This document shows, piece by piece, positions 37,340 to 60,533 of a DNA stretch of 64,000 nucleotides. The notes under the pieces are model-generated. The model ran no database searches. It was not told the DNA's origin and was given only the letters and a program-made list of their open reading frames with translations. Each line of letters starts with the position of its first letter. Position 1 is the first letter of the stretch. Both the position numbers and the translations under genes were made by a program. The stretch comes from a virus: IMG/VR virus record IMGVR_UViG_3300025030_000064, positions 29,499-93,498 of that record; one strand, 5' to 3'.

Positions 37340-37458
37340 TTAAAACATATTGTAGCTACCTATTAGCTGCAATTTAATTTTAATTGCCATCGCACCGCAG
37401 TTTTTCAAACTGTTATTATTAAATCTAATTTTTTTTGCAAATTCAGCAGCCATACCAC

Positions 37459-38133
37459 TTAAAAAACCCTTTCTTTTTCCATTCGTTTCAAGCAATCCAA
37501 AGGCTCTTCATTAGGCAGTAAATTATAACCACAACCAAGCGTTCCTCCTTTCCAACTGCCTTTTCTCTTTCCAACTTCTTTTGAAAAATGTATATCTATT
37601 CCTCTGCTTGTCTTAGCAAATAAACTTGTCCACTTCAATCCTTTTGGTCGCCACTCTCTTTCATCAACATAAATCGTAGTTGGTATTATTGTTCCATCAT
37701 ATTTATCTGTAAAGTCATAAGTCCAAGATTTTTGTTTTGCCTTCCATTCATCATTATAAAAACTTTTACAACTACCTTTCGTTTCATGCTCCCAAGTATC
37801 ATCTTTCAATAATATTGAAGTCCTTACCCAATCTTTTGTAATAAATGGAAAATACCATGTCCACCATTTATTACCGCCATTACCGTTGCCTTTTCCACCT
37901 TTATAAATCCAAAAGGTATTATTATGTATTTTTATTCCCCAACATGGTGGGTCGCATTCATCTGTCCATTTATTTCTAAATGGTAAAACAAAAGTCAAAC
38001 TGAAAAATATCAAGTCTAAGTTTATTCGTGGTCGGTTATCAAAATAACCACACACTTCGTAGCTTAAATCAAAGTGCCATCCAAAATAAAAATACATCCA
38101 ATTGTTTTCAAAAATCCATTTTTCTTTTTTCAT
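37459..38133 (-). CDS. Trp-rich hypothetical cassette protein
   Basis: Likely ATG at 38133 (MKKEKW); the longer ORF call starts inside the cassette end. Confidence 0.7.
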   Translation of the reverse strand: MKKEKWIFENNWMYFYFGWHFDLSYEVCGYFDNRPRINLDLIFFSLTFVLPFRNKWTDECDPPCWGIKIHNNTFWIYKGGKGNGNGGNKWWTWYFPFITKDWVRTSILLKDDTWEHETKGSCKSFYNDEWKAKQKSWTYDFTDKYDGTIIPTTIYVDEREWRPKGLKWTSLFAKTSRGIDIHFSKEVGKRKGSWKGGTLGCGYNLLPNEEPLDCLKRMEKERVF

Positions 38134-38182
38134 ATAAATTATTATTAAAATTAAACAGACCACACACACAAGCCACCGCACC

Positions 38183-38236
38183 AGCTAACACATGCTTAAA
38201 ACCATTAAAACAGGTTTCAAGCATCATTCGTTAGCA
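38183..38236 (+). repeat. attC-like site
   Basis: AGCTAAC-ac-ATGCTTAAAACC...GGTTTCAAGCAT-cattc-GTTAGCA. Confidence 0.8.
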
Positions 38237-38365
38237 AACATTAAAACGACACTTCGTTTTTGCTAACATGTCCTTATGGCTATATTGTTCGTGTTTCATC
38301 TTTTGTTTCATAGGTTAATAATAAAAAAGAAAAGCCAACCCTCGTCAGCTTTTCAAGCTGTTATT

Positions 38366-38587
38366 TTAATGTCCGTTTAATTTAACTTCTTTTGAAGTTT
38401 TTTCACAACTGTCATACAAATCAGTTAAATAACTCTCGCTAATATTTTTCAATTCTTCATTTACTTCATTTAGCGAGGTTTTCTTTAATTTATTTAATTC
38501 ATTTTCAGTAAAATCTTCTTTTTTAGATTCACCAAAAAGAGCCAGATTCAATAATCTGATTCGCATTAATTTTCCGTTTGTTTTCAT
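38366..38587 (-). CDS. Hypothetical cassette protein
   Basis: ORF inside array 1, likely ATG at 38587. Confidence 0.55.
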   Translation of the reverse strand: MKTNGKLMRIRLLNLALFGESKKEDFTENELNKLKKTSLNEVNEELKNISESYLTDLYDSCEKTSKEVKLNGH

Positions 38588-38606
38588 TTTTTTTTTTAGT
38601 TTTAAT

Positions 38607-38849
38607 TTATAATTTTTCAAATGTTTTACCGCTTTCCATCATAATAAAATATTTTTTATGATTTAATAAGGGTAAAATAAATTTACCATCATTACCTACA
38701 AGAATAGCATAGGTATTTTCATTTGCGACAACCATCGTTTCAAGTTTTTCATAAACTTCAGCAACTTCTTTAGTTGTTACAGAATAATTATCACCTAAAT
38801 AGTGATTCATAATCTGTCCGTCTTTTTCAACGATTCTTAATGTATACAT
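38607..38849 (-). CDS. Hypothetical cassette protein
   Basis: ORF inside array 1. Confidence 0.65.
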   Translation of the reverse strand: MYTLRIVEKDGQIMNHYLGDNYSVTTKEVAEVYEKLETMVVANENTYAILVGNDGKFILPLLNHKKYFIMMESGKTFEKL

Positions 38850-38975
38850 ATATTTATTTATTAAATTTGGGTACTCTAAAAGATTTTCCCCTTCCTCTTT
38901 TTCTTTTTTACTCAGTTTTTCAATTTACTTTCTGCAAGTTAATGCACTTTGCAAAGCCCAGTTCATTAGCAACCA

Positions 38976-39422
38976 TTAACCGCCATATTTAATGTAGTCT
39001 TTTAATATCCTTTCGGGTATTTTAAAAGTTGTATGATAACCATCAAGCCATTCGTTAAAGGCGGTTAACGTAACCTCCGCACTATCCTCGCTCTTGCTAA
39101 CATCAACTAAGGGTGCATTTTTTGCAGTTTCAATCGAAGTTTTACCGCCGCACCTTTTTAAAATACTTTCTACGTCTATATCTTTTGGCATCACTGGCTC
39201 TATTGGATAACACCATTCAAACATTTTCACTTCTTCTTCGGTCATCGGAAATCGTCCTGCAAATGCTGGCTCCCAAACATATCCAAGTGAGTTTTCGTCA
39301 ACATACATTCGGTTAGATGCCCTTGCCTGTGCAATTAATTCATGGTGTAAATCATTACTGCTAATTATTTTTCCTCCATGTATTGCCAAAAATTCAAGTA
39401 ATCTTTTTAAATCATTTTCCAT
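38976..39422 (-). CDS. Hypothetical protein starting inside an attC loop
   Basis: Peptide NAPLVDVSK is encoded by the left attC arm and core. Confidence 0.7.
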   Translation of the reverse strand: MENDLKRLLEFLAIHGGKIISSNDLHHELIAQARASNRMYVDENSLGYVWEPAFAGRFPMTEEEVKMFEWCYPIEPVMPKDIDVESILKRCGGKTSIETAKNAPLVDVSKSEDSAEVTLTAFNEWLDGYHTTFKIPERILKDYIKYGG

Positions 39423-39492
39423 CGCTCAAAGTTTATATTGTTATTATTTAAAATTGATTTCATTTAACGCACCTTAGTTGTGTTCATTAGAA
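39095..39492 (+). repeat. attC-like site with a coding loop of about 350 bp
   Basis: TGCTAAC-at-CAACTAAGGGTGC (39104-39116) pairs with GCACCTTAGTTG (39469-39480) with one extra G; right core is ATTAGAA. Confidence 0.7.
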
Positions 39493-39511
39493 GACATCCC
39501 TTCGGGCTGTC

Positions 39512-39613
39512 TTCTAATGAGAGGCTTGAAACCGTTTCGAATGCCGCCCTTCGGGACGACCTTCTAACAATGGCTAAGAAGCCATTTAAACGGCTCCAAG
39601 CCTCTCGTTAGTG
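39512..39613 (+). repeat. attC-like site
   Basis: TTCTAAT-GAGAGGCTTGAAACCGTTT...AAACGGCTCCAAGCCTCTC-GTTAGTG. Confidence 0.7.
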
Positions 39614-39631
39614 GCAATTGTTTTGTTTAAA

Positions 39632-40291
39632 TTAAAAAGCCAACGCACTCTGCAAATTTTTCAAATTTGTAAAAGGTTTTGTCCATTGCTCTGCCATAGC
39701 TTTTGCCAATCCATCAGGTGTTTTACTTCTCAATCGCCTGGCAACTTCATTATTATTACTTGTACTTGTTTGTCCCATATAACTGTATTTTGATTTTCCG
39801 CTTTTTGTTTTTTTAGAGTTGTATTCAATAAATACAGGCTCAACCATTTGTGTAGGTTCTAAGTTTGGTAAGTTTTTCAGCCACAAACAAGTTGATTTTT
39901 TATAAGCATCTCCAAACCAAAACGGCTGTACAATTTGGTCTGGCTTTCTAAATTCACTACTCATTATACCTATTGGGTTCTCAACTGCAATTTTCGGTAT
40001 CTCACAATGTGCTAATGCTAAAAAGAAACTAATTGATTTTTGTTGCCTTCCATCTTTTCGCTTCTGTTCAAAATGTGCTGCACCACTTACAGCTAAATCC
40101 GTACAAGGCGGAAAAAATATTCCCATCTCCCAATTGCCTCCGTATATTACATCAAAAATATTTTCCTTAAAATGCCACTCAGGATGTCCGCCACTACATT
40201 CTTGTATATCGCAACTAAAGGCTTCATGTCCTAATTTTCGCAACTCAATTGTTACCGCTTGTGATTCTTCGCAACCAACTAATATTTTCAT
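39632..40291 (-). CDS. Phage DNA cytosine methyltransferase (cassette gene)
   Basis: ILVGCEES, SCDI, FPPCT, VENP, KSTCLW and RSKT motifs. Confidence 0.8.
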   Translation of the reverse strand: MKILVGCEESQAVTIELRKLGHEAFSCDIQECSGGHPEWHFKENIFDVIYGGNWEMGIFFPPCTDLAVSGAAHFEQKRKDGRQQKSISFFLALAHCEIPKIAVENPIGIMSSEFRKPDQIVQPFWFGDAYKKSTCLWLKNLPNLEPTQMVEPVFIEYNSKKTKSGKSKYSYMGQTSTSNNNEVARRLRSKTPDGLAKAMAEQWTKPFTNLKNLQSALAF

Positions 40292-40367
40292 CTTCTATGT
40301 TTTTAAATGGCTTACACACGCCACCCTTTTTTTAATTTAAACAAAACAATTGTAAAGGCTAAAGCCC

Positions 40368-40429
40368 CACTAACACAGGCTAAAACAACATTGCGAAAAG
40401 CAACGATTGTTTAGCCTCATCCGTTATTT
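40368..40429 (+). repeat. attC-like site, last in array 1
   Basis: CACTAAC-ac-AGGCTAAAACAA...TTGTTTAGCCT-catcc-GTTATTT, with an extra base in the left arm. Confidence 0.8.
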
Positions 40430-40561
40430 ACAAATCCAAATCTTTTTCTGATCTTTCATTATCTGCTTTATTATCTAAGGCATTATATTTCTCTTCTAAC
40501 TCTTCATCTGATAGTTCAGATAAGTAGTTATTAAGGTTGTCATCTTCTTTACCAAGTATTA

Positions 40562-40813
40562 TCATAGCATTGCTCCATCTAATCCATAACTAATAGCATC
40601 TTTAATGTTACATCTTTGTACAATAGTATCACAAGCTGCTCCACCATCAAAATGATATATCTCAACATTCCAATGAGGATTCTCGCCTGGCACTTCTTTA
40701 AAAAGATGTACTTCTATATAATGCTTTCTATATGTAGCTGAGAAGTTATACTTATCATTTTTAGTGATATTCTTATTTTGGATTATTCTTAATCTATCGC
40801 CTCCTATTTTCAT
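40562..40813 (-). CDS. Hypothetical protein
   Basis: Packed ORF. Confidence 0.65.
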   Translation of the reverse strand: MKIGGDRLRIIQNKNITKNDKYNFSATYRKHYIEVHLFKEVPGENPHWNVEIYHFDGGAACDTIVQRCNIKDAISYGLDGAML

Positions 40814-40814
40814 A

Positions 40815-41117
40815 TTAAAATGGTAGATCGTTAGGATTAGGATTAAGGTCGCTTATTATATTCTCATTAGATATAGGTTCTTCTTTAACTATTGGAACAG
40901 GTTCAAGCATTTCGTCAATAGCAACAGTTGTTTTATTCCATCCATCTACCTTACCTCCAAAATATTTTTGTCCATTACCTTGCTTGATCCATAATGCCAT
41001 ATCTCTCTCTATTCCATTAAGCATTATTTTTCCTCTAAAGTCAGGATGATTTTCTTCTCTTTTATGATCATTCTTAAAGATAACAAAATTACCTTCACTT
41101 AATCTATTTGCTTCCAT
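40815..41117 (-). CDS. DUF736-like putative ssDNA-binding protein
   Basis: FKND..HPDFRG...ALW motif and an SSB-like C-terminal DLPF. Confidence 0.55.
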   Translation of the reverse strand: MEANRLSEGNFVIFKNDHKREENHPDFRGKIMLNGIERDMALWIKQGNGQKYFGGKVDGWNKTTVAIDEMLEPVPIVKEEPISNENIISDLNPNPNDLPF

Positions 41118-41268
41118 TATTCTTCCATTATTAATTGTTCTAATTCATCTACATGTCCACAGTTTTGACAATACATTGCAGATTGTGTAATATAAACACT
41201 ATCACTTTTACATTCACTACAACGAGGAACGTCTTTTGCTTCATCATTTAGTACTGATTCTATTTTAC

Positions 41269-41577
41269 TCATAGTTCTTTAGGTTTAGGAGTATTAAACA
41301 TAGGATTCTCTGGCATTGGCAATGCATCTGAAAACTCTCTTCTATCTACTATATTACCATTAGATAGCATCCCAGCATAACCACTTTTACAAAGTTCTAT
41401 TGTTTTTAATAGTTTTATTTCCTTTTCAAATTGAAATCTCCAATACTCTTTAGCTATCTTAGATTTAACTGCATCTATAAATATTTTAGTAGTAATTAAA
41501 TCTTTAATCTTAATTGATTTATCGTATGCATCTGCTGCTTCTTGAAGTCGCAATTCAAGATTTTCAATTTTATTCAT
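41269..41577 (-). CDS. Hypothetical protein
   Basis: Packed ORF. Confidence 0.6.
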   Translation of the reverse strand: MNKIENLELRLQEAADAYDKSIKIKDLITTKIFIDAVKSKIAKEYWRFQFEKEIKLLKTIELCKSGYAGMLSNGNIVDRREFSDALPMPENPMFNTPKPKEL

Positions 41578-41789
41578 ATTAATCCTTTTATATCTTTAAT
41601 TCGTATTATTGCTTTTTCAGCCCATTCAGGAACTTTATCTTTTCCACTTTGCAAGCATTCTATAACCCATTCAGCATTCTCATCTGACATCATATCAATA
41701 CTAGTTTTAGTAAAGTAATCCTTATCATGAATCCAACATCTATCTAATATAGAAGAGAAATATTCTTTTGATTCAATCTCTTTATTCAT
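41574..41789 (-). CDS. Hypothetical protein
   Basis: Packed ORF. Confidence 0.6.
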   Translation of the reverse strand: MNKEIESKEYFSSILDRCWIHDKDYFTKTSIDMMSDENAEWVIECLQSGKDKVPEWAEKAIIRIKDIKGLI

Positions 41790-41971
41790 TATGCTTCTCT
41801 ATCTACATTTAAAGTACATACAACAATTTCCATAGTGTCATCTTCTAATCCACCTAATTCTGTTTCTTCACATGATGTAACTTCTTCAAAGTGTTCTTCT
41901 GTAGTAGGAACATAAACTGTTAAGTCCTGATTAACTTTTTGCAACTGTTCAATTAATTCTGATACTCTCAT
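41789..41971 (-). CDS. Hypothetical small phage protein
   Basis: MRVSELIEQL N-terminus common in small phage proteins. Confidence 0.6.
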   Translation of the reverse strand: MRVSELIEQLQKVNQDLTVYVPTTEEHFEEVTSCEETELGGLEDDTMEIVVCTLNVDREA

Positions 41972-42320
41972 TTTGATTCTTTTTTAAGTTTAAAATTATA
42001 TTTTTTTGTTTTACGTTCAACATCTTTATATTTCCATTTAAAACCCCATGCATTTAATCTTTTTTCATTTAAAACATTTACTATATTAGAAGAAGAAGAA
42101 TGACCTAATTCTTTTGCAGCAGCCGTAGCAGACTCCCATTCTTTAACAAAATTATCATCTAAATCATATTGTATTATAGGAATCATTATTTTTAGTAAAG
42201 TTTCTGTTGTGATTTACATTTTCCATTTTTATATTGTTTCCATCTATTTATAATATCATTAGATTGTCCAATGTAAATCTTTTTTGAAGGACTAGTGATT
42301 TTGTAGATACCTATTATCAT
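41968..42320 (-). pseudogene. Split GIY-YIG / NUMOD1 homing endonuclease
   Basis: 42192-42320 translates MIIGIYKITSPSKKIYIGQS...KLY*; 41968-42186 is a NUMOD1 domain (IIQYDLD..VKEWESA..AA...GFKWKY). Confidence 0.75.
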
Positions 42321-42439
42321 AATATAAAAACCAGTAGTCTAACAAAGGCTTGTCCGTTTGAGGAGATTCCTCTTTGGCATTGTTAAAGCTACTGGATTTT
42401 TTAATGTTTTCATACGAACAAGCACTACAAAAATAATAC

Positions 42440-42922
42440 TTACTTATGAATAATCCTAATAATTTTACCAAACCCTTGTGGCATATCTTTAAACTTCATA
42501 TCTATCGGTTCGAGAATATCAATATGTTTACTCCCTTGTACTATATCCTTAACCACTAACACACGAACAACACTATCTAAGACAAGATAAATACTATCAC
42601 CAAAGTTTACCTTAGTATAGAGTAAATCTTTACTTATAGCACACCATACACCGTAAGAATAATCTTTGATATGATCTCCACTTGCTGTAATGAATGGACT
42701 TGAATCGCATTGTGCTATTGTAGGCTGGTATGAAGTAACCTTCACGTTAATATCTACTATCCTTGTATTAGCCATTCTAAAAATACTATCTTGTGATAAA
42801 GTATCTAACGGTTCCTTATGACTACATTGACTGATATATGCTCCTGTAGATAATACCATACAACCAAACAAGGTCATAAAGGCTATCTTAGCTATTATAC
42901 TTATACCATCATTTGCACTCAT
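42440..42922 (-). CDS. 3D-domain (MltA-like) cell-wall enzyme, membrane anchored
   Basis: VTSY..QCD..PFITASG, CAIS.DL, KD and HIDIL motifs; N-terminal TM. Confidence 0.7.
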   Translation of the reverse strand: MSANDGISIIAKIAFMTLFGCMVLSTGAYISQCSHKEPLDTLSQDSIFRMANTRIVDINVKVTSYQPTIAQCDSSPFITASGDHIKDYSYGVWCAISKDLLYTKVNFGDSIYLVLDSVVRVLVVKDIVQGSKHIDILEPIDMKFKDMPQGFGKIIRIIHK

Positions 42923-43118
42923 CTACTAATTCTTTTGGTTTATGTACTTCTGTCTGTAATCCTTTACTTCTTAGTTTCATCTCCATAAGTTGTCTTGCAT
43001 GTTTAGACTTCCAATTATCAAAAGCACAACCATCCCATGCATGAGGTAAGCTAAAGGTTAATTTACCATCAATAGCTGCTACATATACATCATCTATCTT
43101 TACTGATTCTTTTCCCAT
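42909..43118 (-). CDS. Hypothetical protein
   Basis: Packed ORF. Confidence 0.55.
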   Translation of the reverse strand: MGKESVKIDDVYVAAIDGKLTFSLPHAWDGCAFDNWKSKHARQLMEMKLRSKGLQTEVHKPKELVDECK

Positions 43119-43119
43119 G

Positions 43120-44577: not shown

Positions 44578-44677
44578 AATTTTATACTTTTTTATTTATA
44601 AAAGTAAAGGAGAGTATTACCTCTCCTCTACCAAATCCAATTATTAATCCCAAAACAAATAACTATGAAAAACATTG

Positions 44678-44709: not shown

Positions 44710-44710
44710 T

Positions 44711-47132: not shown

Positions 47133-47133
47133 G

Positions 47134-48393: not shown

Positions 48394-48395
48394 AA

Positions 48396-50820: not shown

Positions 50821-50859
50821 TACTTAATTATTAAATTATTAATTAAAGATACTATTTAC

Positions 50860-51096
50860 TTATTGAATAACAAAAACCTGATTCATGAGTTTAATATACA
50901 TAACTTTACCACTTGCTATTCTTACCTTTGCTCCTTTATAGGTTATCTTTTCTTTCTTAGCATATTCTTATATTGTCATAAGTCCAAACTTTGATACTAA
51001 ATGTTCAAGTATTTCAAGTTCTTCGTTCATTAGAATATGATTCTCATTTGATGCTTTTATGTACCTAATAGATACATTTTCATATAGTTTACTCAT
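50860..51096 (-). pseudogene. Paralog of the 58601-58837 wHTH gene with an in-frame TAA at codon 43
   Basis: MSKLYENVSIRYIKAS...GLMTI*EYAKKEKITYKGAKVRIASGKVMYIKLMNQVFVIQ; stop at 50968-50970. Confidence 0.85.
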
Positions 51097-51130
51097 TGGT
51101 CTTATTTATTATACTATGAGTAGCGGAATG

Positions 51131-51496
51131 TTAGCCAAAAGAAATTTTCGGGCATAAGTGCTTAATTGACGCTCCCATCATCTTAATAAATTTATCTGCA
51201 ACTTTTTCATTTGGAAATCTAAACATTCCTGTTGCTGTATTGATTGTTGTTGGTTCGTGGCATACGGTATAAAAATGCGGTTTTGGATTTTCAGCTAATG
51301 CCACATAATTATTTTGGTTCAATCCGTAATCAAACGTCCATTTAGGTTCTTTAGATAAAAGTTGCTTCCAAATTTTAAATGCCTTTCGTTGTGCGGTTAT
51401 AAATTCTTGCTCTGTAACCGAAAATTTCTTTTGGCTAACAAGTGCTTTATTCAATGCCTTACTTTTCGGCTTCGTATTAACTTTTTTCTTTTCCAT
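51131..51496 (-). CDS. Cassette protein starting in an attC loop
   Basis: ATG in the loop, KALNKALVSQ encoded by the arm, stop is the TTA of the core. Confidence 0.75.
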   Translation of the reverse strand: MEKKKVNTKPKSKALNKALVSQKKFSVTEQEFITAQRKAFKIWKQLLSKEPKWTFDYGLNQNNYVALAENPKPHFYTVCHEPTTINTATGMFRFPNEKVADKFIKMMGASIKHLCPKISFG

Positions 51497-51563
51497 AATA
51501 TTTGTATCTCTAATTAAGTTTTGTCTGTTAAGTCGGTACTAAATAAAGCCCCGTTCGTTACCG
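51433..51563 (+). repeat. attC-like site
   Basis: GGCTAAC-aa-GTGCTTTATTCAATGCC...GGTACTAAATAAAGCCC-cgttc-GTTACCG. Confidence 0.8.
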
Positions 51564-51749
51564 CCAATTTTAAGACGGCATTTTCCAACTGTTCGAACTT
51601 GTTTTTATCCACCCTGCATTTATTCGCCCTAATTCAACTAATCCGTGCATATATTCGTACATAAGTTCATCATTTTCATACATTTCAACTAACCTATTCC
51701 AATTTTCTATAAATGGTTTCCAAATAGGACACATTAGTTTTATTTTATT

Positions 51750-52040
51750 TTATTTTTCCAAATTAAAACAATCGTCTAGTTCTATTTGTACGTTCCAATT
51801 AAGGTTGCTCACATCAACTTCGATAGATTCTTTTACGGTTATTTTTTCGAGTTTTGACAACGTGTAAAAATGTCTGTCAATCCAATAACCATAAGAACCT
51901 CCATTCGCTTGTAGCGGCTTAAAATTAGGAATAAAACTAATGTCAAATAGATTCTTTTTACGGAAGGCAAAAGTTTTATTTCCAATCTTAAAATGGTTCG
52001 AATAAGTGATGATGTATTTTTCTTGTAAAAGACTATCCAT
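51750..52040 (-). CDS. Hypothetical protein to the left of a second attI-like junction
   Basis: Intact 96-aa ORF with NGGSYGYWI. Confidence 0.65.
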   Translation of the reverse strand: MDSLLQEKYIITYSNHFKIGNKTFAFRKKNLFDISFIPNFKPLQANGGSYGYWIDRHFYTLSKLEKITVKESIEVDVSNLNWNVQIELDDCFNLEK

Positions 52041-52084
52041 TTGATTATCAGTTTAAAATATGGGTGGCTGTGGTATATAAGATG

Positions 52085-52342
52085 TTATAAGTCAGTTTGC
52101 CCATAAAGGTATCCGCATCCATCAGGGCAGTACCATCTAACATCGTTTGCTACTTTGTATTTAAGTGGGTGCTGGCAAACCGAACTTATAACATGGGCTT
52201 TATTCAATAATTTAATTTTTAGTAACTCTCTCATTTCATGATGCACTTCAATCAATTTTGTTCCATCAAGCGCACATTTCTTCGGCACAGCTTTGTATGC
52301 TATTTTCAAAATTTCGTTTATTAAGTCGTTATCTATTGTCAT
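52085..52342 (-). CDS. Cassette protein with a C-terminal Cys/His (Zn-finger-like) module
   Basis: Likely ATG at 52342 in the attC loop; LLNKAHVISS encoded by the arm; CQHP...CPDGC. Confidence 0.7.
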   Translation of the reverse strand: MTIDNDLINEILKIAYKAVPKKCALDGTKLIEVHHEMRELLKIKLLNKAHVISSVCQHPLKYKVANDVRWYCPDGCGYLYGQTDL

Positions 52343-52386
52343 ATCGTATAAAATTAAATTACTAAATAAAGCCCCAACCGTTAGCT
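52186..52386 (+). repeat. attC-like site with a coding loop
   Basis: TTATAAC-at-GGGCTTTATTCAATAATTTAATTTT...AAAATTAAATTACTAAATAAAGCCC-caacc-GTTAGCT. Confidence 0.8.
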
Positions 52387-52455
52387 GCAAGCACTACATT
52401 TGTACTTCGATTATAGTTCATAGTTGAAAATTTTTAATATTTTTTGCCTACGCTT

Positions 52456-52746
52456 CTAATCATTGTGTTTAGACAAGTTTCCTACAAGTTGGCATAATCC
52501 ACCAAGCCCGTCATCAAGTTTGTGATGTATAAAATCACTTTCATTGGTTTTGCCTTCTAAAAAACTTATTATTAGTTGTAATTCTTGCAATCTATCAATA
52601 TACCAGTTTTTTCTTGGTACGTGTGAATTATTCAAACGAATTGACCGTGATTTGTATTTCAGTCTTTCGATTTGCAAATCCTCGTCCTTAATAAGTTTTT
52701 TAAATACTTTAACTCGTTTTTTTAGAGTTGTTATTGTTTTTTCCAT
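52456..52746 (-). CDS. Hypothetical cassette protein
   Basis: Flanked by a perfect 20-bp inverted repeat. Confidence 0.65.
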   Translation of the reverse strand: MEKTITTLKKRVKVFKKLIKDEDLQIERLKYKSRSIRLNNSHVPRKNWYIDRLQELQLIISFLEGKTNESDFIHHKLDDGLGGLCQLVGNLSKHND

Positions 52747-52828
52747 CCTTAAAAAATATTAAAAATTTTCTTTCGTATTTCAATCATAGTTCAGTTCTTA
52801 ATAATGGCACGTTTCATAGCCCCAACCG

Positions 52829-53008
52829 TTATAAAACAGTTTGCTTTGGAACTGTCTTACAGCATTTATAACAAAATCTTTTATTGCCTCCTGCATCGAT
52901 ACAATATTGCCAAGGATGACTACAAACCGATTTTATAACATCAGATAATAACAATTTTTCAGTGCTATTATCAATCTTTTTTACTTGTTTTTTGCTTTTG
53001 TTTTTCAT
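52829..53008 (-). CDS. 59-aa cassette protein with a Zn-finger-like module (absent from the ORF track)
   Basis: MKNKSKKQVKKIDNSTEKLLLSDVIKSVCSHPWQYCIDAGGNKRFCYKCCKTVPKQTVL*. Confidence 0.7.
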   Translation of the reverse strand: MKNKSKKQVKKIDNSTEKLLLSDVIKSVCSHPWQYCIDAGGNKRFCYKCCKTVPKQTVL

Positions 53009-53050
53009 ATTAAATTTATTTAAACTGTTGTTATCTGCGTACCGTTATAG
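52933..53050 (+). repeat. attC-like site
   Basis: TTATAAC-at-CAGATAATAACAATTT...AAACTGTTGTTATCTG-cgtacc-GTTATAG. Confidence 0.8.
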
Positions 53051-53245
53051 GGCATTTGGATTGAACAACCTAATAGCCTTTAAAGGTGCTTTCATTGTCA
53101 AATCACTCATTACATCATCCACATCATTTAAAATAGTATGATGAACTGTGCCTTTTAATTTCATTGATATTTTAACCCTTGCATCCATCAATTCTTTGTG
53201 GAGCAATTCGTATAGTTCGGTTTCTTTTTTCTTACTGATTTTCAT
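53045..53245 (-). CDS. Hypothetical cassette protein
   Basis: Stop codon is the TTA of the core site. Confidence 0.7.
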   Translation of the reverse strand: MKISKKKETELYELLHKELMDARVKISMKLKGTVHHTILNDVDDVMSDLTMKAPLKAIRLFNPNAL

Positions 53246-53257
53246 AAAACAAACGCC

Positions 53258-53351
53258 CTATAACATTACATACACAAAAGCGGGGGCGAAGTGCTAAAAT
53301 GTATGTTCGGGTTAAAGAAGCCCCGCCTTCGTGTATGCTTTACCGTTATAA
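53258..53351 (+). repeat. attC-like site
   Basis: CTATAAC-atta-CATACACAAAAGCGGGG...CCCCGCCTTCGTGTATG-ctttacc-GTTATAA. Confidence 0.85.
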
Positions 53352-53361
53352 ACAATAAAAA

Positions 53362-53589
53362 TTATTCTCTCCGTTTTAAATATGGATGTTTTCTATAAAA
53401 CAGCCATTGCTTAAATCGTAATCTCGGCATTTTCCAACCAGATTTTACGGCATCCAATGTCAGCCATTCGGAAATAAAATTCATTAGGCGGTATCTAAAT
53501 TTTAACCACTTTGGAAAGTCATGCCAATTCTTTCCTTCTTGTGTGTATATTTTATTTCCTTCGATTAATGTGTTTTCACGCCAACCCAT
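53362..53589 (-). CDS. Hypothetical cassette protein
   Basis: ORF inside array 2. Confidence 0.65.
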   Translation of the reverse strand: MGWRENTLIEGNKIYTQEGKNWHDFPKWLKFRYRLMNFISEWLTLDAVKSGWKMPRLRFKQWLFYRKHPYLKRRE

Positions 53590-53656
53590 AATTTTTACTG
53601 TGTTTTATATCAAGTTTTCGTTTAAAACAGTGCTTATTTCCACCGTTAGACAACAT

Positions 53657-53881
53657 TTAATCCGTCACCTCTGGAATGTTCCCATTTAATATATCCGTGA
53701 ATGATATTACCTTGAAATGACCACCATCAATAGCAATCCAATCCTCACACATATCCGACCAACGAACATGATAACATAGTCTTGGCTCTAAATCATCACT
53801 TGGTTTTACCATTTCAACTCCAACTATTTCTGCTAGAACTCCTGTTTTATAAGAGTATCTATGAACTCCTACTAAATATAC
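53657..53881 (-). pseudogene. 5'-truncated cassette ORF
   Basis: Open frame VYLVGVHRYSYKTG...IPEVTD* preceded directly by TAA, with no start at its 5' end. Confidence 0.45.
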
Positions 53882-53902
53882 TTAACGTTAGGACTTAATT
53901 CG

Positions 53903-55231
53903 TTATTTACTTTGGTCATAAGCAACAACTTTTAATTCACTTTCCTCTCTTTCTACAAAATCCATCAACATTGTTTTACCGTACTCTTTAGCTATCGCTT
54001 CCATCTCTTTAAGTGACTCATTATCAAGGTCATTAGCACATCCAATAACAATTAAAGGACTATCATTAATGGCACACTGTATTCTTGCTCCTGTGAGTAT
54101 AGCTTTAGACTTACATACCTGATTCTCTTTAAAGGATAGTTCGCCAAGCATTAGACCATCATCTGTTAGTCTTAGGTCTTTTACTGGGTTCTTACTATTC
54201 TTAATGATATCATCTTGTTTGTCTCTTTCTAACTGTACTGCAGCATCAGTCTTTTCCCATTCATCATGATTAACTACTCTCTTAGCCTTTACTTCATCAT
54301 ATGACTTCTTTTTAAGTACAAGAGCATCTATCTCAGCTATCTTCTCTTTACCTGTCTGAATACGTTGCTTTAACACATCAGCATTAGGAACATCAGATGT
54401 CTGTAGCTTCACTAACTCTTCTCTACTCTTATTTAGTTCTTCAGTAGCTTTATTAAGAATCTTGATATGGTCTTGTAGTTGTTTAATCTGTTGTTCAGAC
54501 TTTGCTATATCAGAAATATTTGTTTCTATACTCTTATCTGCATGAGCGATCTTCTCTGCTATACCTTTCTGTTTTTCTATAGCTACTGCGATACCTGAAT
54601 ACTCTTCTTCTAATTCTTTTAGCTTATCGAAGTTTACTTGTCTGACAGAAATAAGGTACATCTGATCATCTGTGAGCTCATAACCCTTTTCTATCTCCGT
54701 TAATTGCTTAACAGTGGCATTAAGGTTTGTTCTTTTATCGTAGTACTGCTTTTCTAATAGAGTAGATAGTTCATAGGCTTTAGCTTGTTCTTCATCTAAT
54801 AGAGAAAGGAATATCTTCTTAGCTTCTTCTTTACCTTTAGCAGACATGCTCATCTGCATGAATTCTTCAGCAGTAAAAGTGTTGTACTTAAAGATATTTC
54901 TAATCTGGTTGACAGACTTTACAATCTTTCCTTCTTCATCAATAGCTACAAACTTAGCATCTCCTGACTTATCAAATGTTGCTCTTACTATGTATCTCTT
55001 TCCATCTGCTCCTACAAGGTTAATAGCTTCAATAGAGCCATTCTCTTCTCCTATTGTTACTGGTTGGTCAATATCGAGCTTTGCAGTGTGTAAGGCTTTA
55101 ATCGCCTGTAAAAAGCTCGATTTCCCTTTATCGTTAGAACCTGATATGAAGTAGATATAGTTATCAGCTAAGTCTATTTCTTTGTTTTTTAACTTTTTGT
55201 AGTTTTTGAAAATTAATTTAATTTCTGGCAT
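53903..55231 (-). CDS. SbcC/SMC-like AAA ATPase
   Basis: N-terminal Walker A GSNDKGKSS and a long coiled coil. Confidence 0.75.
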   Translation of the reverse strand: MPEIKLIFKNYKKLKNKEIDLADNYIYFISGSNDKGKSSFLQAIKALHTAKLDIDQPVTIGEENGSIEAINLVGADGKRYIVRATFDKSGDAKFVAIDEEGKIVKSVNQIRNIFKYNTFTAEEFMQMSMSAKGKEEAKKIFLSLLDEEQAKAYELSTLLEKQYYDKRTNLNATVKQLTEIEKGYELTDDQMYLISVRQVNFDKLKELEEEYSGIAVAIEKQKGIAEKIAHADKSIETNISDIAKSEQQIKQLQDHIKILNKATEELNKSREELVKLQTSDVPNADVLKQRIQTGKEKIAEIDALVLKKKSYDEVKAKRVVNHDEWEKTDAAVQLERDKQDDIIKNSKNPVKDLRLTDDGLMLGELSFKENQVCKSKAILTGARIQCAINDSPLIVIGCANDLDNESLKEMEAIAKEYGKTMLMDFVEREESELKVVAYDQSK

Positions 55232-55252
55232 ATTATTTTATTTTAGTTAATT

Positions 55253-57067
55253 TCATACCTCAATAAATTCATTTTTATCTAGGTCACATACATATCTTAT
55301 AACCTTATCTTCTCCTTGTCCAGCATCTCTTATCTTCACTCCTTCAATAATAAACATCTTCTTTAATAGTTCATATTGTTCCTTTGCTGTCAAATCTCTA
55401 TCTCCAAAAAGATATAGGTCACGTTTATCTCTTACTTTCTTCTCTTTGTACTTACCATTATGTAACCATGTATAAATAGCCATTATTCCTCTCTTATACT
55501 TATCTTCTTCTGTAGAGTCATTAATACTCTGCATTAGTCTGTAATAAGCAGTATAGGCTATAAAAAGGCTATTCATTGTTGCTTCTGTACCATCAGCCAT
55601 ATGTTCCCTACCCATGATAACATCTCTTACCTTATCCCATGTAGCTTGTTTAAGGTTTACAATAGGATTCTTAAAGTTAGTAGTAAAGCTATCACTATTA
55701 GGATTTAGTTTCCAAAAAGACTTCTCAAAGTCCTGGTCGGTAAACTTCAATTCTTCAGTAGGCATACCTAACGCTCTTTGTTTATACACATCCATAAGGT
55801 CAGGATATCTACTTGGGAGATTAGCTAATGCAACAGAATTAGCATAGTTAACGAAAGTACCACTACCCTTAATAGTTGTCTCTCTTGGTCTGTAACCGTC
55901 TTTAAGATTATACTTTGAACCATGTTCTTTAGTGACATGATGAAGAGCATATATACATGCATTTGTTTCAGTTCTTATTTCTACAAGAACATCCATGATA
56001 TACATATCCTTTTCTGTCTGGTCCTTGAATCTTATCGTACTACCTATTAAACCAATATTATCAACTACTATGATAAGCTCTTTTTTATTAGCTTTTGCTT
56101 GTTCATTAACCTTACGAGAGAATTTCTTTAACTCTTTCTCTGTTATCTTAACATCAACAAATTTGATATTAAATCCTTTCTTACTTAATCGTATTAATGA
56201 ATTAGCAATAGTCTGTTTCTCTTCTACACATAGCTTATTGTCTTTAGATAATAGTTTCCTATCTCTATAGCCAGTATCCATAGATATCATTCTTCTCACA
56301 ATCTTTTCTTTTGGATCTTCCATTGATACCCATAGTACATCAATATCTTTATTGTTTTCACACACATGATACATAATAGCTATAGTGGCTGCGGTTTTTG
56401 CTGATTCTTTATCTGCTGCAAGCATGAAAATAGAGGACTTAGATAAGCCAAAGAGATTATCAAACTTAGGAAATTGTTTAGTAGCATAGATATTTGATTC
56501 TCTATTACTATTATCTTCAATCTCATTAGCTGCTGATTCAATACATTTTTCCATCTCTACCATCTCCTTGCTTCTTGTAAAGGCTAATAGAGAAGATATA
56601 CCATCAATATGATTATGTATCACATCATCTATATCTATATCATCAGTAAAACAATCTTGTTGTACTTGTTCGCTCAATCGTATTACTTCTCTTAGGATAT
56701 ACTTCTGTTGTATAATCCTCATGTGGAACATAGCATGAGAAGAAGAAGCTACTTTACCTGTTAATGTAGTAAGATAAAAGGCTCCTCCTACATCTTCAAG
56801 CTTTTGTCTATCTATTAGCTTATTCTTCACAGTAAAGATGTCTATAGGCTCATTCTTTTCATAGAGAGAATGAATAGCTTCATAGATAATCTTATTCTCA
56901 GGAGAATAAAACCAATCAGCTTTACATACGTCTAATACTCCTTTTGCCTGTTTCGGATCAATCATTATAGCTCCTAGAATTGTTTGTTCTATATCTATAT
57001 TTTGAGGCGGTATCTTAGATAGTACATCTACTGCTTTCTTTCTCTTATCTGTTTTATCTTTTTCCAT
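55253..57067 (-). CDS. dnaB: DnaB-like replicative helicase
   Basis: PPQNIDIEQTILGA N-terminal domain, SMED, IVVDNI, KGSG; degenerate P-loop. Confidence 0.85.
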   Translation of the reverse strand: MEKDKTDKRKKAVDVLSKIPPQNIDIEQTILGAIMIDPKQAKGVLDVCKADWFYSPENKIIYEAIHSLYEKNEPIDIFTVKNKLIDRQKLEDVGGAFYLTTLTGKVASSSHAMFHMRIIQQKYILREVIRLSEQVQQDCFTDDIDIDDVIHNHIDGISSLLAFTRSKEMVEMEKCIESAANEIEDNSNRESNIYATKQFPKFDNLFGLSKSSIFMLAADKESAKTAATIAIMYHVCENNKDIDVLWVSMEDPKEKIVRRMISMDTGYRDRKLLSKDNKLCVEEKQTIANSLIRLSKKGFNIKFVDVKITEKELKKFSRKVNEQAKANKKELIIVVDNIGLIGSTIRFKDQTEKDMYIMDVLVEIRTETNACIYALHHVTKEHGSKYNLKDGYRPRETTIKGSGTFVNYANSVALANLPSRYPDLMDVYKQRALGMPTEELKFTDQDFEKSFWKLNPNSDSFTTNFKNPIVNLKQATWDKVRDVIMGREHMADGTEATMNSLFIAYTAYYRLMQSINDSTEEDKYKRGIMAIYTWLHNGKYKEKKVRDKRDLYLFGDRDLTAKEQYELLKKMFIIEGVKIRDAGQGEDKVIRYVCDLDKNEFIEV

Positions 57068-57078
57068 TGTTGAATTTA

Positions 57079-57534
57079 TTATAAAATTCCTTCATCAGCA
57101 AAGCTATAGTATTTCTTTAAATCACCTGCTATAATTAAATGTTCAAGTAAGGAAATCTCAAAATACCTTGCTCCTTCTTTAATCTTCTTTGTTATATCAA
57201 TATCTTGGTCAGAAGGTTTTAAGTTACAACTTGGATGATTATGAATAAGTATTAATGCACTTGCTCCACAAAGAATAGCTTTTTGAAATATTAATCTTGG
57301 GTCCATTATTGTTCCAGCTATACCTCCTTGACTTATTCTTGTCCATCCTATCGTATTATGTGCTTTGTTTAAGTAAAGACATAAAGATTCTTCTGATAAT
57401 TCAACTGTATCTAGATTAAGTAGCTCTTTAGCTATTGTAAATACATCCGAGGATTGCTTAATCTGATATTTCTTTACATCTCCTGATTTATACTTTAAAG
57501 TAATCTCAGGCATTGTTGATTTATATTCTTTCAT
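57079..57534 (-). CDS. radC: RadC-like JAB-domain protein
   Basis: ISQGG...DPR, HNHPS..LKPS..D, LLEHLII. Confidence 0.9.
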   Translation of the reverse strand: MKEYKSTMPEITLKYKSGDVKKYQIKQSSDVFTIAKELLNLDTVELSEESLCLYLNKAHNTIGWTRISQGGIAGTIMDPRLIFQKAILCGASALILIHNHPSCNLKPSDQDIDITKKIKEGARYFEISLLEHLIIAGDLKKYYSFADEGIL

Positions 57535-57669
57535 AAGCCTCCTTCTGCATCTGAATAACTAATATCTCCATGTCCAGTACCACCTTGATCATTATCCATG
57601 TTACACTCTTCGTCTATGAGCATATCACAATCATCACAACTTCTATTATCGTTATAAGGGCAATTAGGG

Positions 57670-57855
57670 TTATTCATCTTCTATTTCTTCTTTTTCGTTA
57701 TTACATATCCATAAAGAAGTGTCTTCTTTGTTAGGATCTAATCCATATTCTCTTGTTAAAATAAATATTAAATCTTTAGCTTCTTGATAATTATTAGCTT
57801 GTATATTTAACAATACTTCATTATGCCAACTATGAATAAAAGTAAATGTTTTCAT
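57670..57855 (-). CDS. Hypothetical protein
   Basis: Packed ORF. Confidence 0.55.
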   Translation of the reverse strand: MKTFTFIHSWHNEVLLNIQANNYQEAKDLIFILTREYGLDPNKEDTSLWICNNEKEEIEDE

Positions 57856-57860
57856 TTGTT

Positions 57861-58379
57861 TTATTGTTTTAATTGTTGATATTCTAGTTTCAATTCTTCC
57901 TGTAGTAATGTAATCTTAGACCAACTAAATCCCTTCTCTTCTGCTAATCGTTCTCTTTGTATTTCAGTACCAAAATCATAAGCCAAATGCTCCCTAGCTG
58001 TTAACATTACGATATTCTTAGGGTTTAGTTTAAACTTATAATATTTATTCTGAGCTTTGGAAAGTACATGAGCAAATTGATTATAGTAGAAAGGACTATC
58101 CTTATCTACTAGCTTATCTCCTGATAGGAATGAGATATGAGGCATTGTGTTCCATATATGTTCAAACATCTCTTTCTCTGAATCAAATCCCCATAAGGAA
58201 TACTTATCTATATTTCTTTTAAGTACCTTACTATTATTCTTAACTATCTTTGAACAGTTATATCTTTTAGGTTTTATTATAGCTTTCTTTATTGGTTTAC
58301 CATGTTCCTTAGCCCAACATCACTTGCAGAGTTGTAAAGCAAACACTGGTCTATCATCATTAAGACATGTCTTAGCCAT
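57861..58379 (-). pseudogene. HNH-like protein with an in-frame TGA at codon 20
   Basis: MAKTCLNDDRPVFALQLCK*CWAKEH... continues in frame into 57861-58169 (FAHVLSK...NIVMLTAREH). Confidence 0.65.
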
Positions 58380-58382
58380 TAA

Positions 58383-58604
58383 TTATAAATACTTTTTGGA
58401 AAATTGTTTATATAATAAAGCCCAATATTCATGACCTTCTTTTGTCTTAGCCCAATGAAATCCATGACTAGGATTAAGTAAGTTTATACGATTATAGCCA
58501 TTTTGTTTTTGTACATTACAAAGATACTTATCTAATGCTTTATTTTTTTCTAAGAACTCTTTTAGTTCTCTTGTTAATACTATTAAAATAGGTTTGTCTT
58601 TCAT
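58383..58604 (-). CDS. Hypothetical protein
   Basis: Packed ORF. Confidence 0.6.
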   Translation of the reverse strand: MKDKPILIVLTRELKEFLEKNKALDKYLCNVQKQNGYNRINLLNPSHGFHWAKTKEGHEYWALLYKQFSKKYL

Positions 58605-58837
58605 TGTATTATAAATTTTTGGTTCATTAGTTCAATATACATAACCTTACCACTATTTATTCTCTTCTTAGCTCCATTATAGCTTATATTCTGCTCTTTA
58701 GCAAAGTCTGATAATGATGTTAGTTTATATCTTTGAACCAAATACTCTAATATTCTTAGTTCTTCATCCATTGTTATATGACCTTCTTCTGAAGATTTTA
58801 TATACCTATTTGCTACATTTTCATACAGTTTACTCAT
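58601..58837 (-). CDS. Small winged-HTH, excisionase-like DNA-binding protein
   Basis: SLSDFAKEQNISYNGAKKRINSGKV..IEL resembles HTH_17/Xis; next to the attI-like site. Confidence 0.6.
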   Translation of the reverse strand: MSKLYENVANRYIKSSEEGHITMDEELRILEYLVQRYKLTSLSDFAKEQNISYNGAKKRINSGKVMYIELMNQKFIIQ

Positions 58838-58891
58838 TGGTTCAATTTATTGTATTACGAGTAGTATGATGTTACCAAACATTGTATTAAT

Positions 58892-59263
58892 TTAAAAATT
58901 ATTTGCCATCGCACGTTCATAATCATCGTCAATTATTACAGTATCTTTTCCTATTGCATCGCATAACGGTATTGTTTCTCCATCTTCGGGGTGTCTATAA
59001 ACTGAAACAAACATTCCGTCCTGAAACTCCACCGTAGAAGAATATCCTGCACATACAAATAATTGGTCGCCTTCATAAATTTCTTTCCCATTACTGTCTT
59101 TCAGTCCTGTATATTGCCCAACATTATCAACCGTCCAAGATGTTTCTCCATTGGTTATTTCCCAATTACCATTTGTCTGTTTAACCAAATAGCCATACGC
59201 CCAATATTCTTGTCCGTTTATTCCTTGAAACCATCCTCTAAATTTAATTTCTCTATTTTCCAT
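58892..59263 (-). CDS. YopX-family protein (cassette gene)
   Basis: REIKFRG...GQYTGLKDSNGKEIYEGD. Confidence 0.9.
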   Translation of the reverse strand: MENREIKFRGWFQGINGQEYWAYGYLVKQTNGNWEITNGETSWTVDNVGQYTGLKDSNGKEIYEGDQLFVCAGYSSTVEFQDGMFVSVYRHPEDGETIPLCDAIGKDTVIIDDDYERAMANNF

Positions 59264-59321
59264 CGCTTAAATAATTTTTAAATTAATACAACGAGCCTAC
59301 GCTCAAATTCCTTACGCACTT

Positions 59322-59394
59322 TGGTAACATCACCTTTGCGCTATTCTCCAGCCGCACTATCCAACGCACAACAGACGCAAAGCTGCGGTTAGTG
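59322..59394 (+). repeat. attC-like site
   Basis: TGGTAAC-at-CACCTTTGCGCTATT...AACAGACGCAAAGCTG-cg-GTTAGTG. Confidence 0.75.
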
Positions 59395-59400
59395 GCAAGC

Positions 59401-59913
59401 TCAAAGAACCACTATCGTACTTTTGATGTCTTTTGTTACTTCTTTCCATCCTTGCGTTCCTTTCCAAATTATTGGTTTTATTTGCCTTACATCTTCGTAA
59501 ACATGGCAATACAAATCTTCCCGCCACTTCACAAAACACTTGTCGGCATCTTTTGGCTTCATTTTCCTACTATCAACTAATTTACCTATTGCAATTCCGT
59601 AACCATTCAAATCAAGGGTTCCGCTATCCCGATTCATCGCACTAAGCATTTTATAATATAAATCTGTTCCGCAAAGTTTGTGCTCAATATCTTCACTATA
59701 TGCTTTCAAACTTGTACATATCAATACCCACCCACGCACATTTGTATTCCATGTTCGAGTTTCAATTTTACCATAAAGCATTGCGGTTGCAAATGGTTGT
59801 TTCCAAGATAAAGCCAATAATTTTTGGTCTACAGGAAATGAGCCAGCCACTAACACAGGCTCAACCGCAATAGCGGGTTTAGTGGGTAAGTCAAATAAAG
59901 TGCCTTGTATCAT
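59401..59913 (-). CDS. ASCH-domain protein (cassette gene, starts in the attC loop)
   Basis: ALSWKQPFA...GKIETR.W..NVRG.VLI...KGTQGW. Confidence 0.85.
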   Translation of the reverse strand: MIQGTLFDLPTKPAIAVEPVLVAGSFPVDQKLLALSWKQPFATAMLYGKIETRTWNTNVRGWVLICTSLKAYSEDIEHKLCGTDLYYKMLSAMNRDSGTLDLNGYGIAIGKLVDSRKMKPKDADKCFVKWREDLYCHVYEDVRQIKPIIWKGTQGWKEVTKDIKSTIVVL

Positions 59914-60157
59914 ATTCGTTGTATTTTGATTGTCCTAATTGTATTTTTATAATTTTAGAATTATCGTTACACGAAAAAATTAAACAGCAAGCAATAATGA
60001 AATATAATTTTTTAATGTGTTTTATTAATTTTCGTAAATTATTAAAATATTTTCTATCATTTCTATAAAATGTATTTTCCTCTAAAATTATATTTCTTTC
60101 ATGGTTTATGTTAATAGCATTTGATTGTCCTTGTATTATAATTATTTTATCTTTCAT
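59891..60157 (-). CDS. Hypothetical protein within a composite attC loop
   Basis: ORF between the arms at 59848 and 60241. Confidence 0.45.
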   Translation of the reverse strand: MKDKIIIIQGQSNAININHERNIILEENTFYRNDRKYFNNLRKLIKHIKKLYFIIACCLIFSCNDNSKIIKIQLGQSKYNEYDTRHFI

Positions 60158-60241
60158 AAACCCTCCTCATTTTTTAAACTTTTTATTTATTTCAAATTTA
60201 ATTTATTACAAATTAATACGCACGTTTACAAGCCCTGTTCG

Positions 60242-60499
60242 TTAGCGTTCATTTACCAACACACTCTGATACATCTCTTCAAGGTCTTTAAAAAACCTAT
60301 CTCCTTGAATAATCACCATTGATGGATTATTTTTATTTACATATCTGATATAACCACTTTCAATCCTTTCATAACACTCATGAGCATCTCTACCTTTTTC
60401 TGTATTAAACCAGTGTAAATATGTTCTTGTTTGTATTATTGTTGTTATTTTTAAATCTGAAATTTGATGTTTAAAATCCATTTTAATTTTATTTTGCAT
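60242..60499 (-). CDS. Hypothetical cassette protein
   Basis: Stop codon is the TTA of the core at 60242; start may be 60481. Confidence 0.65.
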   Translation of the reverse strand: MQNKIKMDFKHQISDLKITTIIQTRTYLHWFNTEKGRDAHECYERIESGYIRYVNKNNPSMVIIQGDRFFKDLEEMYQSVLVNER

Positions 60500-60533
60500 T
60501 GCCAGCCGTTAGACAAAATTACGCTTCGTTTCA

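Follow-up and report, generated by a model that had tools for sequence, protein, structure and literature searches.

Can a phage genome carry arrays of mobile gene cassettes of the integron type, and what would move them? The question is raised by the IMG/VR virus record IMGVR_UViG_3300025030_000064, which is linear, 93.5 kb long and estimated to be 94% complete (about 6% of the phage genome may be missing from it). We analysed its bases 29499-93498, a stretch of 64,000 nucleotides (nt) that we call the window and in whose numbering the features are located. An initial annotation of this stretch had described three blocks of small units bounded by complementary cores and separated by imperfect hairpins, and had read them as integron-like cassette arrays in a crAss-like phage. 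Our analysis supports an integron-type architecture: covariance models built from other contigs detect the sites, the units start with a complement of the R'' core of their own site, and they are bounded by cores. Most probably, integron-type mobile gene cassettes make up the three blocks, in a mirror-built variant peculiar to phages, the mechanism of which we infer. The crAss-like assignment is likewise supported, as the 1349-amino-acid (aa) virion protein matches exclusively crAss-like phages (among them Cellulophaga phage phi14:2 and gut crAss genomes) at ~26% identity.

Sites of the three arrays

The arrays hold ten full attC-like sites and about eight bare GTTA cores, and all full sites are on the + strand. 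The six complementary core pairs that had been quoted for the arrays were all found in the sequence: TTAGCTG (37363-37369) with CAGCTAAC (38182-38189); GTTAGTGG (39607) with CCACTAAC (40367), a pair that occurs again at 59388 and 59846; a 22-nt pair (51130-51151 with 51418-51439); GTTATAAG (52084) with CTTATAAC (52184); GTTATAGGGC (53044) with GCCCTATAAC (53258); and GTTACCAAA (58860) with TTTGGTAAC (59320). The position of 37352 given for the TTAGCTG core was, however, about 10 nt off, and the left end of array 1 is not a bare core, as had been supposed, but a degenerate full site (site 1.0 in Table 1). The motif [CT]CGTTA is fivefold enriched on the + strand of the arrays, which hold 15 of its 37 genome copies in 8% of the genome (3.0 expected); on the - strand there is 1 copy in the arrays.

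The covariance models R1 (short class, ~50 nt) and R2 (~125 nt) were built solely from sites on other viral contigs, and the window was searched with filters off. The nine best matches, with E values of 1e-9 to 0.85, are confined to the three blocks and to the + strand. Elsewhere in the window no match went below E 0.37, and the remaining 29.7 kb of the genome gave zero matches. Our own models, used in place of the attC models that the initial annotation had proposed as a check, placed all their credible matches within the blocks. The tenth full site (52184-52389), in which 25-nt arms surround a long loop, was found by the scan and in the sequence; the models matched it only weakly and in part (R2, 52343-52389, E 6.9), which we attribute to the long loop. 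A loose scan for TAAC...GTTA hairpins alone gave as many matches in shuffled sequence, i.e. was not above chance, and a spacer-constrained scan and the covariance models took its place. The site signal lies in the spacer asymmetry, the strand and the cores, and not in loose hairpins.

TAAC and GTTA are invariant in the 22 aligned members of the family and present in all ten full window sites. They form the RYYYAAC (5') and GTTRRRY (3') cores of an attC site, although the bases after GTTA are looser than RRRY. Between the cores, the window sites have the imperfect L''/L' pairing, the extrahelical base, the unpaired spacer and the variable loop of an attC hairpin. The longer right spacer and the extra left-arm base, seen earlier by eye, proved to be a fixed asymmetry: the spacers measure 1-2 nt on the left and 4-6 nt on the right, and the short-class sites have an extra A in the left arm (GGCTAAA[A]). 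Terminal loops vary from ~9 to 130 nt. Compensatory double changes occur in 12 of the 16 stem pairs of the R1 alignment, in which 88% of cells are paired, compared to 70% in shuffled and ~30% in slid alignments. In Rfam, no relevant family matches the array hairpins.

The folding of the bottom strand, also proposed at the outset, showed that the complement of the site's top strand has the more stable fold at 62 of the 70 phage sites. The same holds for 10 of 11 sites in arrays of bacterial metagenome-assembled genomes (MAGs), irrespective of gene direction. As the bottom strand of the bacterial arrays is antisense to the genes, this bias argues for a selected fold of DNA rather than mRNA, and the recombining strand is predicted from fold stability.

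In their cores, imperfect hairpin, extra left-arm base and unpaired spacer, the arrays are like integron arrays and clusters of attC sites lacking integrases (CALINs; PMC9892861). Further likenesses are the variable loop, which gives rise to site classes of about 50, 87 and 125 nt, the one compact gene per unit, the complementarity of the start to its own R'', the better-folding bottom strand and the CALIN-like absence of a nearby integrase. Indeed, our own models and scanner find clustered full sites in each array (4 in array 1, 5 in array 2, 2 in array 3) and no integrase, as in a CALIN. A complete integron, with intI beside the array, is not present in this 94%-complete genome.

Cassette units, gene direction and cargo

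The first bases of each unit, TTAxxxx, pair with the xxxxTAA of the hairpin that belongs to it; in the window this complement is 7 to 22 nt long. Across all loci, a complement of at least 7 nt to the unit's own R'' was found in 46 of 73 units, as against 7 of 370 mismatched controls. By these own-pair counts and by the homology breakpoints at cores, G|TT is where cassettes begin and end.

Scans for exact patterns detected this type of site in 3 + 19 further IMG/VR contigs, in arrays of up to 11 sites, and the site family also occurs in the bacterial MAG arrays. Cassettes recur in other phages, where they have different neighbours. Both ends of the methyltransferase unit (39608-40423) have a homologous counterpart in L019:3865-5011. 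The similarity runs from the preceding GTTA to the unit's own GTTA, so that the site on the 5' side of the gene is included and that on the 3' side is excluded. Homology here breaks at GTTA cores, and the methyltransferase travels with the site on its gene's 5' side. The protein is present in cassettes of the contigs L008 and L014 too; the methyltransferase was the sole match in a search of GenBank phage DNA with the phage sequence, and a methyltransferase is also cargo in Polaribacter phage P12002L. L014 (IMGVR_UViG_3300008448_013177, 2761 bp) has direct terminal repeats and consists of cassettes only, with 5-6 sites; it is nearly identical to part of L018 and represents a circle of several cassettes or, alternatively, an artefact of assembling a repeat array.

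The arrays also differ from the phage in composition. Their CpG observed/expected ratio is 1.05, compared to 0.34 in the minus-strand backbone of the early region and 0.41 in the rest of the genome. This bears out the impression that they are richer in CG and makes them compositionally foreign. The phage backbone itself is strongly CpG-depleted (0.34-0.41).

The orientation of a site was read from its top strand, defined as the strand with the longer right spacer and the extra base in the left arm. This rule was right for the one canonical class-1-type attC that we found beside IntI, which follows a sense gene opposite a bona fide IntI (447 bits) and was used only to calibrate orientation. The earlier view that + is the top strand and that all cassette genes are antisense is thereby upheld. 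Of 64 cassettes on viral contigs, 62 have their gene antisense to the site, and every window cassette is among these, whereas genes are sense in 9/9 cassettes of the bacterial MAG arrays L025, L028 and L029. Unlike in integron arrays, then, the window genes do not run in the direction of the attC top strand upstream of the site, and their 5' end abuts the hairpin or lies within it. In short-class cassettes, the ATG is ~30-60 nt beyond R''; in the 125-nt class, it usually falls within the loop (14 of all 56 cassettes). Eleven of the 56 take their stop codon from the preceding core's TAA. From ~34.4 kb onward all window genes are on the minus strand, and as the cassette genes are antisense to the sites, phage early transcription reads every cassette.

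The bacterial arrays share with the phage arrays the core, the spacer geometry, the L-box GGCTAAAAG and the bottom-strand bias, and they are detected by the phage-derived R1. They are unlike them in gene direction and in having sites of ~60 nt.

Two of the predicted cargo genes, the methyltransferase (phrog_757) and YopX (PF09643), were recovered. The labels ASCH and Zn-finger, also given to cassette genes, found no Pfam match, and PHROG and Pfam returned nothing for most cassette proteins. The cargo of Acb3, DNA methyltransferase and YopX points to putative counter-defence and accessory functions.

The recombinase and competing explanations

In our reading, each cassette comprises one small gene and one folded-DNA recombination site. 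The site opens with YAAC and closes with GTTA, and the imperfect hairpin between them, the loop of which varies, is set off by 1-2 nt on the left and by 4-6 nt on the right. In the mechanism that we propose, a tyrosine recombinase would cut the folded bottom (minus) strand at the core, and cassettes would be excised as circles and inserted at the array's left junction in an IntI-like manner. Compared with bacterial cassettes, those of the phage are mirror-built: the gene is antisense to the site, its 5' end adjoins the hairpin loop or lies within it, and the TAA of the preceding core often serves as stop. As no recombinase is found in the genome, the enzyme would act in trans. It could be a small XerA-like recombinase of other phages or a host integron integrase; alternatively, the arrays would be inactive stores.

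A recombinase does accompany related arrays. In contig L003, a 276-aa tyrosine recombinase lies directly at the array's left end and is co-directional with the cassette genes. Its family comprises about 80 metagenomic clusters. Its closest solved relatives are archaeal XerA proteins, its match to IntI4 is only partial, and it scores 38 bits with the integron-integrase model, the cut-off of which is 265 bits; in this the relatives' arrays are unlike integrons. The XerA-like enzyme (~280 aa) is found downstream of the array, on its left (attI-like) side, and is adjacent to it in two of three contigs (L003/L044, L046, L047). In all three evaluable contigs the sites are upstream of the gene and on the opposite strand, at 145 nt (L044), ~480 nt (L047) and 5.9 kb (L046), and they belong to the same family as the window sites. 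The gene is absent from the left flanks of the window arrays, where a 236-aa gene (array 1), the broken copy of a 78-aa gene (array 2) and the intact 78-aa gene (array 3) are found instead. The phage genome also yielded neither a serine recombinase nor a recombinase remnant, nor any relative of the XerA-like family at E <= 1.

Larger tyrosine recombinases were seen in G011 (411 aa, about 14 kb from the array) and G009 (427 aa, ~1.6 kb from the contig's single site); the latter may be an ordinary phage integrase.

Several observations weigh against an integron-type mechanism. The lack of an integrase noted for the window holds for the whole 93.5-kb, 94%-complete genome, which has no PF00589 tyrosine recombinase match. 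Bacterial integrons are linked to these arrays only through loci next to a recombinase remnant. Roughly one boundary in two is a bare core, the blocks 38269-39483 and 51558-52084 have no hairpins, and the spacers (1-2 / 4-6 nt) differ from those of the class-1 attC examined (5 / 6, L038), which R1 did not detect at E <= 1. No circular cassette or site-specific junction was seen in the data examined. The one deletion observed, of 823 nt, is found in contigs X5 and X7, from two samples of different studies, which join 51536 to 52360 with 16 shared letters at the joint. Although 823 nt is the exact distance between the R' cores at 51557 and 52380, the crossover took place in 16-nt identical L' arms, 4-20 nt left of G|TT, and the spacer of the second site was kept. 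The deletion thus looks like homologous recombination or slippage and not like IntI-type cutting. As the natural loss of an in-phase block it speaks for mobile cassettes and shows turnover, but not its mechanism. Two further read joints, which link 43227 with 56564 (21-nt side) and 52845 with 52915 (one run, 20-nt side), had too little support to be used.

A wider proposal, the chances of which we consider evenly balanced, is that environmental phages including Crassvirales run their own integron-like exchange, with a distinct pool of mirror-built cassettes in which genes start within the recombination hairpin, a dedicated small XerA-like enzyme that only some phages encode and others use in trans, and mainly counter-defence cargo such as Acb3 and methyltransferases, and that this phage is a three-array client without a recombinase. 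Integrons are a bacterial device for stockpiling and swapping resistance genes and, as recently shown, anti-phage defence genes. If the proposal is true, with a mirror-image version in lytic-type phages that carries an anti-CBASS gene and a methyltransferase, the same cassette logic would operate on both sides of the phage-bacteria arms race; it suggests that phages would trade counter-defence genes as bacteria trade resistance genes. It would account for the rapid renewal of accessory early genes in crAss-like and other phages. The sites would provide a sequence handle for counter-defence genes, any small gene in such a cassette being a candidate. The reversed build and the XerA-like enzyme would offer a testable case of single-strand, structure-specific recombination evolving outside the IntI family.

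The strongest competing explanation is that ordinary bacterial integron cassettes were captured via a host IntI during infection and are carried as passive cargo, i.e. as a CALIN without any phage-specific system. The same site type does occur in bacterial MAG arrays, and the array of L025 follows an 80-aa C-terminal tyrosine-recombinase remnant, the best, though non-discriminating, match of which is an integron integrase; intact IntI genes are present elsewhere in that genome. Furthermore, Qi et al. 2023 (PMC9892861) showed attC sites of virulent phages to be substrates of IntI1, and IntI is reported to insert cassettes at GTT outside att sites (10.1101/2022.09.11.507474). We nevertheless consider such a capture unlikely. 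Genes are reversed in 62/64 phage cassettes but in 0/9 bacterial ones, hence the phage cassette pool is distinct. The narrow site pattern was found in 19 viral contigs but in only 5 places in 185,579 species genomes, 3 of which are small MAG contigs of 2.6-5.1 kb; two of these contigs, L026 and L027, carry reversed cassettes. The cargo, too, is of phage type (Acb3, YopX and a phage methyltransferase). The site type was not found beside the intact IntI genes of MAG G022 and other contigs; a model search of 55 genomes of the G022 family, in which 98 candidates per genome were scored, missed known sites.

Quite improbable is a second explanation, in which the hairpins regulate the early transcripts, as terminators or as stems that control processing or translation, and the modules shuffle by homologous recombination alone. 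Such shuffling between repeats has been proposed for the promoter-stem-loop (PeSL) cassettes of T4-type phages, lytic phages in which small accessory early genes lie in plastic regions with repeated stem-loops that promote shuffling. The better-folding strand is the minus, mRNA-sense one, genes start in or just past the hairpins, and the one observed polymorphism crossed over within a 16-nt repeat; in arising within such a repeat, the 823-nt variant is PeSL-like. However, the bacterial arrays show an equal bottom-strand bias, and there the bottom strand runs antisense to the genes. Repeat recombination is also unable to generate a unit-specific complementarity of the start to its own R''. Whereas PeSLs recombine as near-identical repeats, the arrays have invariant TAAC/GTTA cores, covarying stems and own-site complementarity, the signature of a site-specific system. 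Homology breaks at the cores, and no Rfam family matches. The likelihood that AT-rich intergenic hairpins and short inverted repeats without common origin came together by chance is negligible: the loose scan agrees with it, but it is already refuted by the R1/R2 searches, which reach E 1e-9 only in the blocks and on one strand only, and by the own-pair counts; the 22-nt perfect complement, the threefold CpG contrast and the cross-contig family also speak against it. Invertons, miniature inverted-repeat transposable elements with terminal repeats and HUH-transposon hairpins were rejected, as the repeats differ from unit to unit and yet are complementary, and no such enzyme is present.

For the integron-type arrays that we favour, a further comparison is offered by the pdif modules of Acinetobacter plasmids, i.e. 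gene modules that are bounded by Xer-family recombinase sites and move between replicons. The pdif sites are 28-bp, double-stranded and alternating, whereas those described here are long, folded, co-oriented hairpins with loops of up to ~130 nt and a longest site of ~200 nt. Qi et al. 2023 (PMC9892861) described 17 CALINs in 10,705 phage genomes, each with at least two predicted attC sites within 3 kb, and found IntI1 to be active on some of these sites. Small attC clusters in phages are thus already known (PMC9892861), whereas our literature search returned nothing on arrays of this kind in crAss-like phages, nothing on reversed cassettes and nothing on a Xer-like enzyme.

Arrays, junctions and genomic surroundings

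Table 1. Features of the three arrays and their left junctions, in window positions (ORF, open reading frame)
Feature	Position	Strand	Support and details
Site 1.0, degenerate full attC-like site, array 1 left end	37314-37371	+	R1 25.9 bits, E 0.0017; R' core ATTA 37362-37365
Acb3 (CBASS inhibitor) cassette, ORF 37459-38181, probable ATG 38133	37363-38230	-	PF25187, E 2.6e-37; start TTAGCTG complementary to own R'' CAGCTAA
Site 1.1, short-class attC-like	38180-38239	+	R1 43.1 bits, E 2.4e-7; DNA fold z -5.8 (+), -6.4 (-)
Mini-unit GTTAGCAAAC...TTTGCTAAC around conserved loop CATTAAAACGA	38231-38268	+	sequence; like unit in L002
Block with three small genes (38366-38620, 38607-38849, 38976-39422)	38269-39483	-	no model-supported site inside
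Composite site 1.2: 17-bp hairpin 39484-39520 and 24-nt-armed hairpin ending in R' GTTAGTGG	39484-39616	+	fold z -7.0 / -9.9; part 39559-39616, R1 25.2 bits, E 0.0025
DNA methyltransferase cassette, ORF 39632-40291	39608-40423	-	phrog_757, E 3.5e-61; start TTAGTGG complementary to own R'' CCACTAA
Site 1.3, short-class attC-like; array 1 right end (CGTTATTTAC)	40365-40432	+	R1 53.5 bits, E 1.2e-9
Array 2 left junction: broken (in-frame stop) copy of 78-aa gene, then first GTTA core 51129	50821-51132	-	homology
Cassette, ORF 51131-51496; ATG in site loop, stop = core TAA	51130-51557	-	22-nt perfect complement start/R''
Site 2.1, 125-nt class	51430-51566	+	R2 56 bits, E 1.8e-7
Block with three small genes, missing in contigs of two other groundwater samples (823 nt)	51537-52359		
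Cassette (ORF 52085-52342, minus) nested in site 2.2	52085-52389	+	25-nt arms 52195-52219, 52350-52375
Cassette, ORF 52456-52746, with partial site 52762-52830	52381-52830	-	R2 12.2 bits, E 2; R' core CCGTTA 52828
Cassette (ORF 52829-53008, minus, stop in core) with site 2.3 at 52930-53053	52829-53053	+	R2 39.2 bits, E 9.4e-5; 9-nt complement start/R''
Cassette (ORF 53045-53245, minus, stop in core) with site 2.4 at 53255-53354	53045-53354	+	R2 34.3 bits, E 5.6e-4; 10-nt complement
Two small-gene units (ORFs 53362-53589, 53657-53812)	53346-53905	-	bare cores only, 53645, 53886, 53902
Array 3 left junction: intact 78-aa gene 58601-58837 and first GTTA core 58860	58601-58863	-	
YopX cassette (ORF 58892-59263, minus) with site 3.1 at 59319-59397	58861-59397	+	PF09643, E 1e-10; site R2 20.7 bits, E 0.085; complement 9 nt
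Cassette (ORF 59401-59913, minus; ATG in site loop) with site 3.2 at 59845-59975	59389-59975	+	phrog_3193; site R2 17.2 bits, E 0.32; complement 8 nt
Two more units (ORF 60242-60499, stop in core)	59967-60511	-	bare cores at 60241, 60508

Arrays 2 and 3 have paralogous left flanks, the homology of which stops exactly at ..ATGTTA. In this halt of the flank homology at the core, the two junctions are like an attI-cassette junction. A homologue of the 78-aa flank gene lies beside the array of L016 (12208-12375). The gene found no family match in PHROG or Pfam; the C-terminal half of its product is helix-turn-helix-like, and the product could be a regulator or a directionality factor.

The right ends of arrays 1 and 2 have CGTTATTTAC in common (40422-40431 and 53901-53910), in array 2 after units bounded by bare cores. 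It contains the stop codon of the next backbone gene and is a candidate for the right half of a target site in an ancestor. Within array 2, site 2.4 is homologous to sites in L002 and L017.

The mini-units of the window and of L002 (~4037-4065) consist of a core, the loop CATTAAAACGA(C) and a complementary inverse core, and the same loop is conserved in nearly all short-class sites. The 17-bp hairpin of site 1.2 has a CTTCGG loop and directly precedes the 24-nt-armed hairpin, and a second CCCTTCGGG lies inside the site. On the minus strand both read CGAAG, which we take to be the motif of a very stable DNA mini-hairpin.

Outside the arrays, a single ORF of 4955 aa (15465-30332) follows the structural genes, at the place where crAss-like phages encode their giant virion-packaged proteins; it has no PHROG match. 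The backbone proteins encoded by the 236-aa gene and the helicase gene have no close relatives in IMG/VR. A DnaB-like helicase lies 0.6-1.9 kb right of the arrays in four otherwise distant contigs (window 53903-57067; L002, L005, L019), so that the arrays hold a similar place in the replication module.

DNA nearly identical to the window was found only in groundwater metagenomes and one soil metagenome. Contigs of other groundwater samples depart from the window at 41128, 51484, 52428, 52768, 56447, 58283 and 59284. These divergence points fall in backbone and arrays alike, which indicates strain-level mosaicism.

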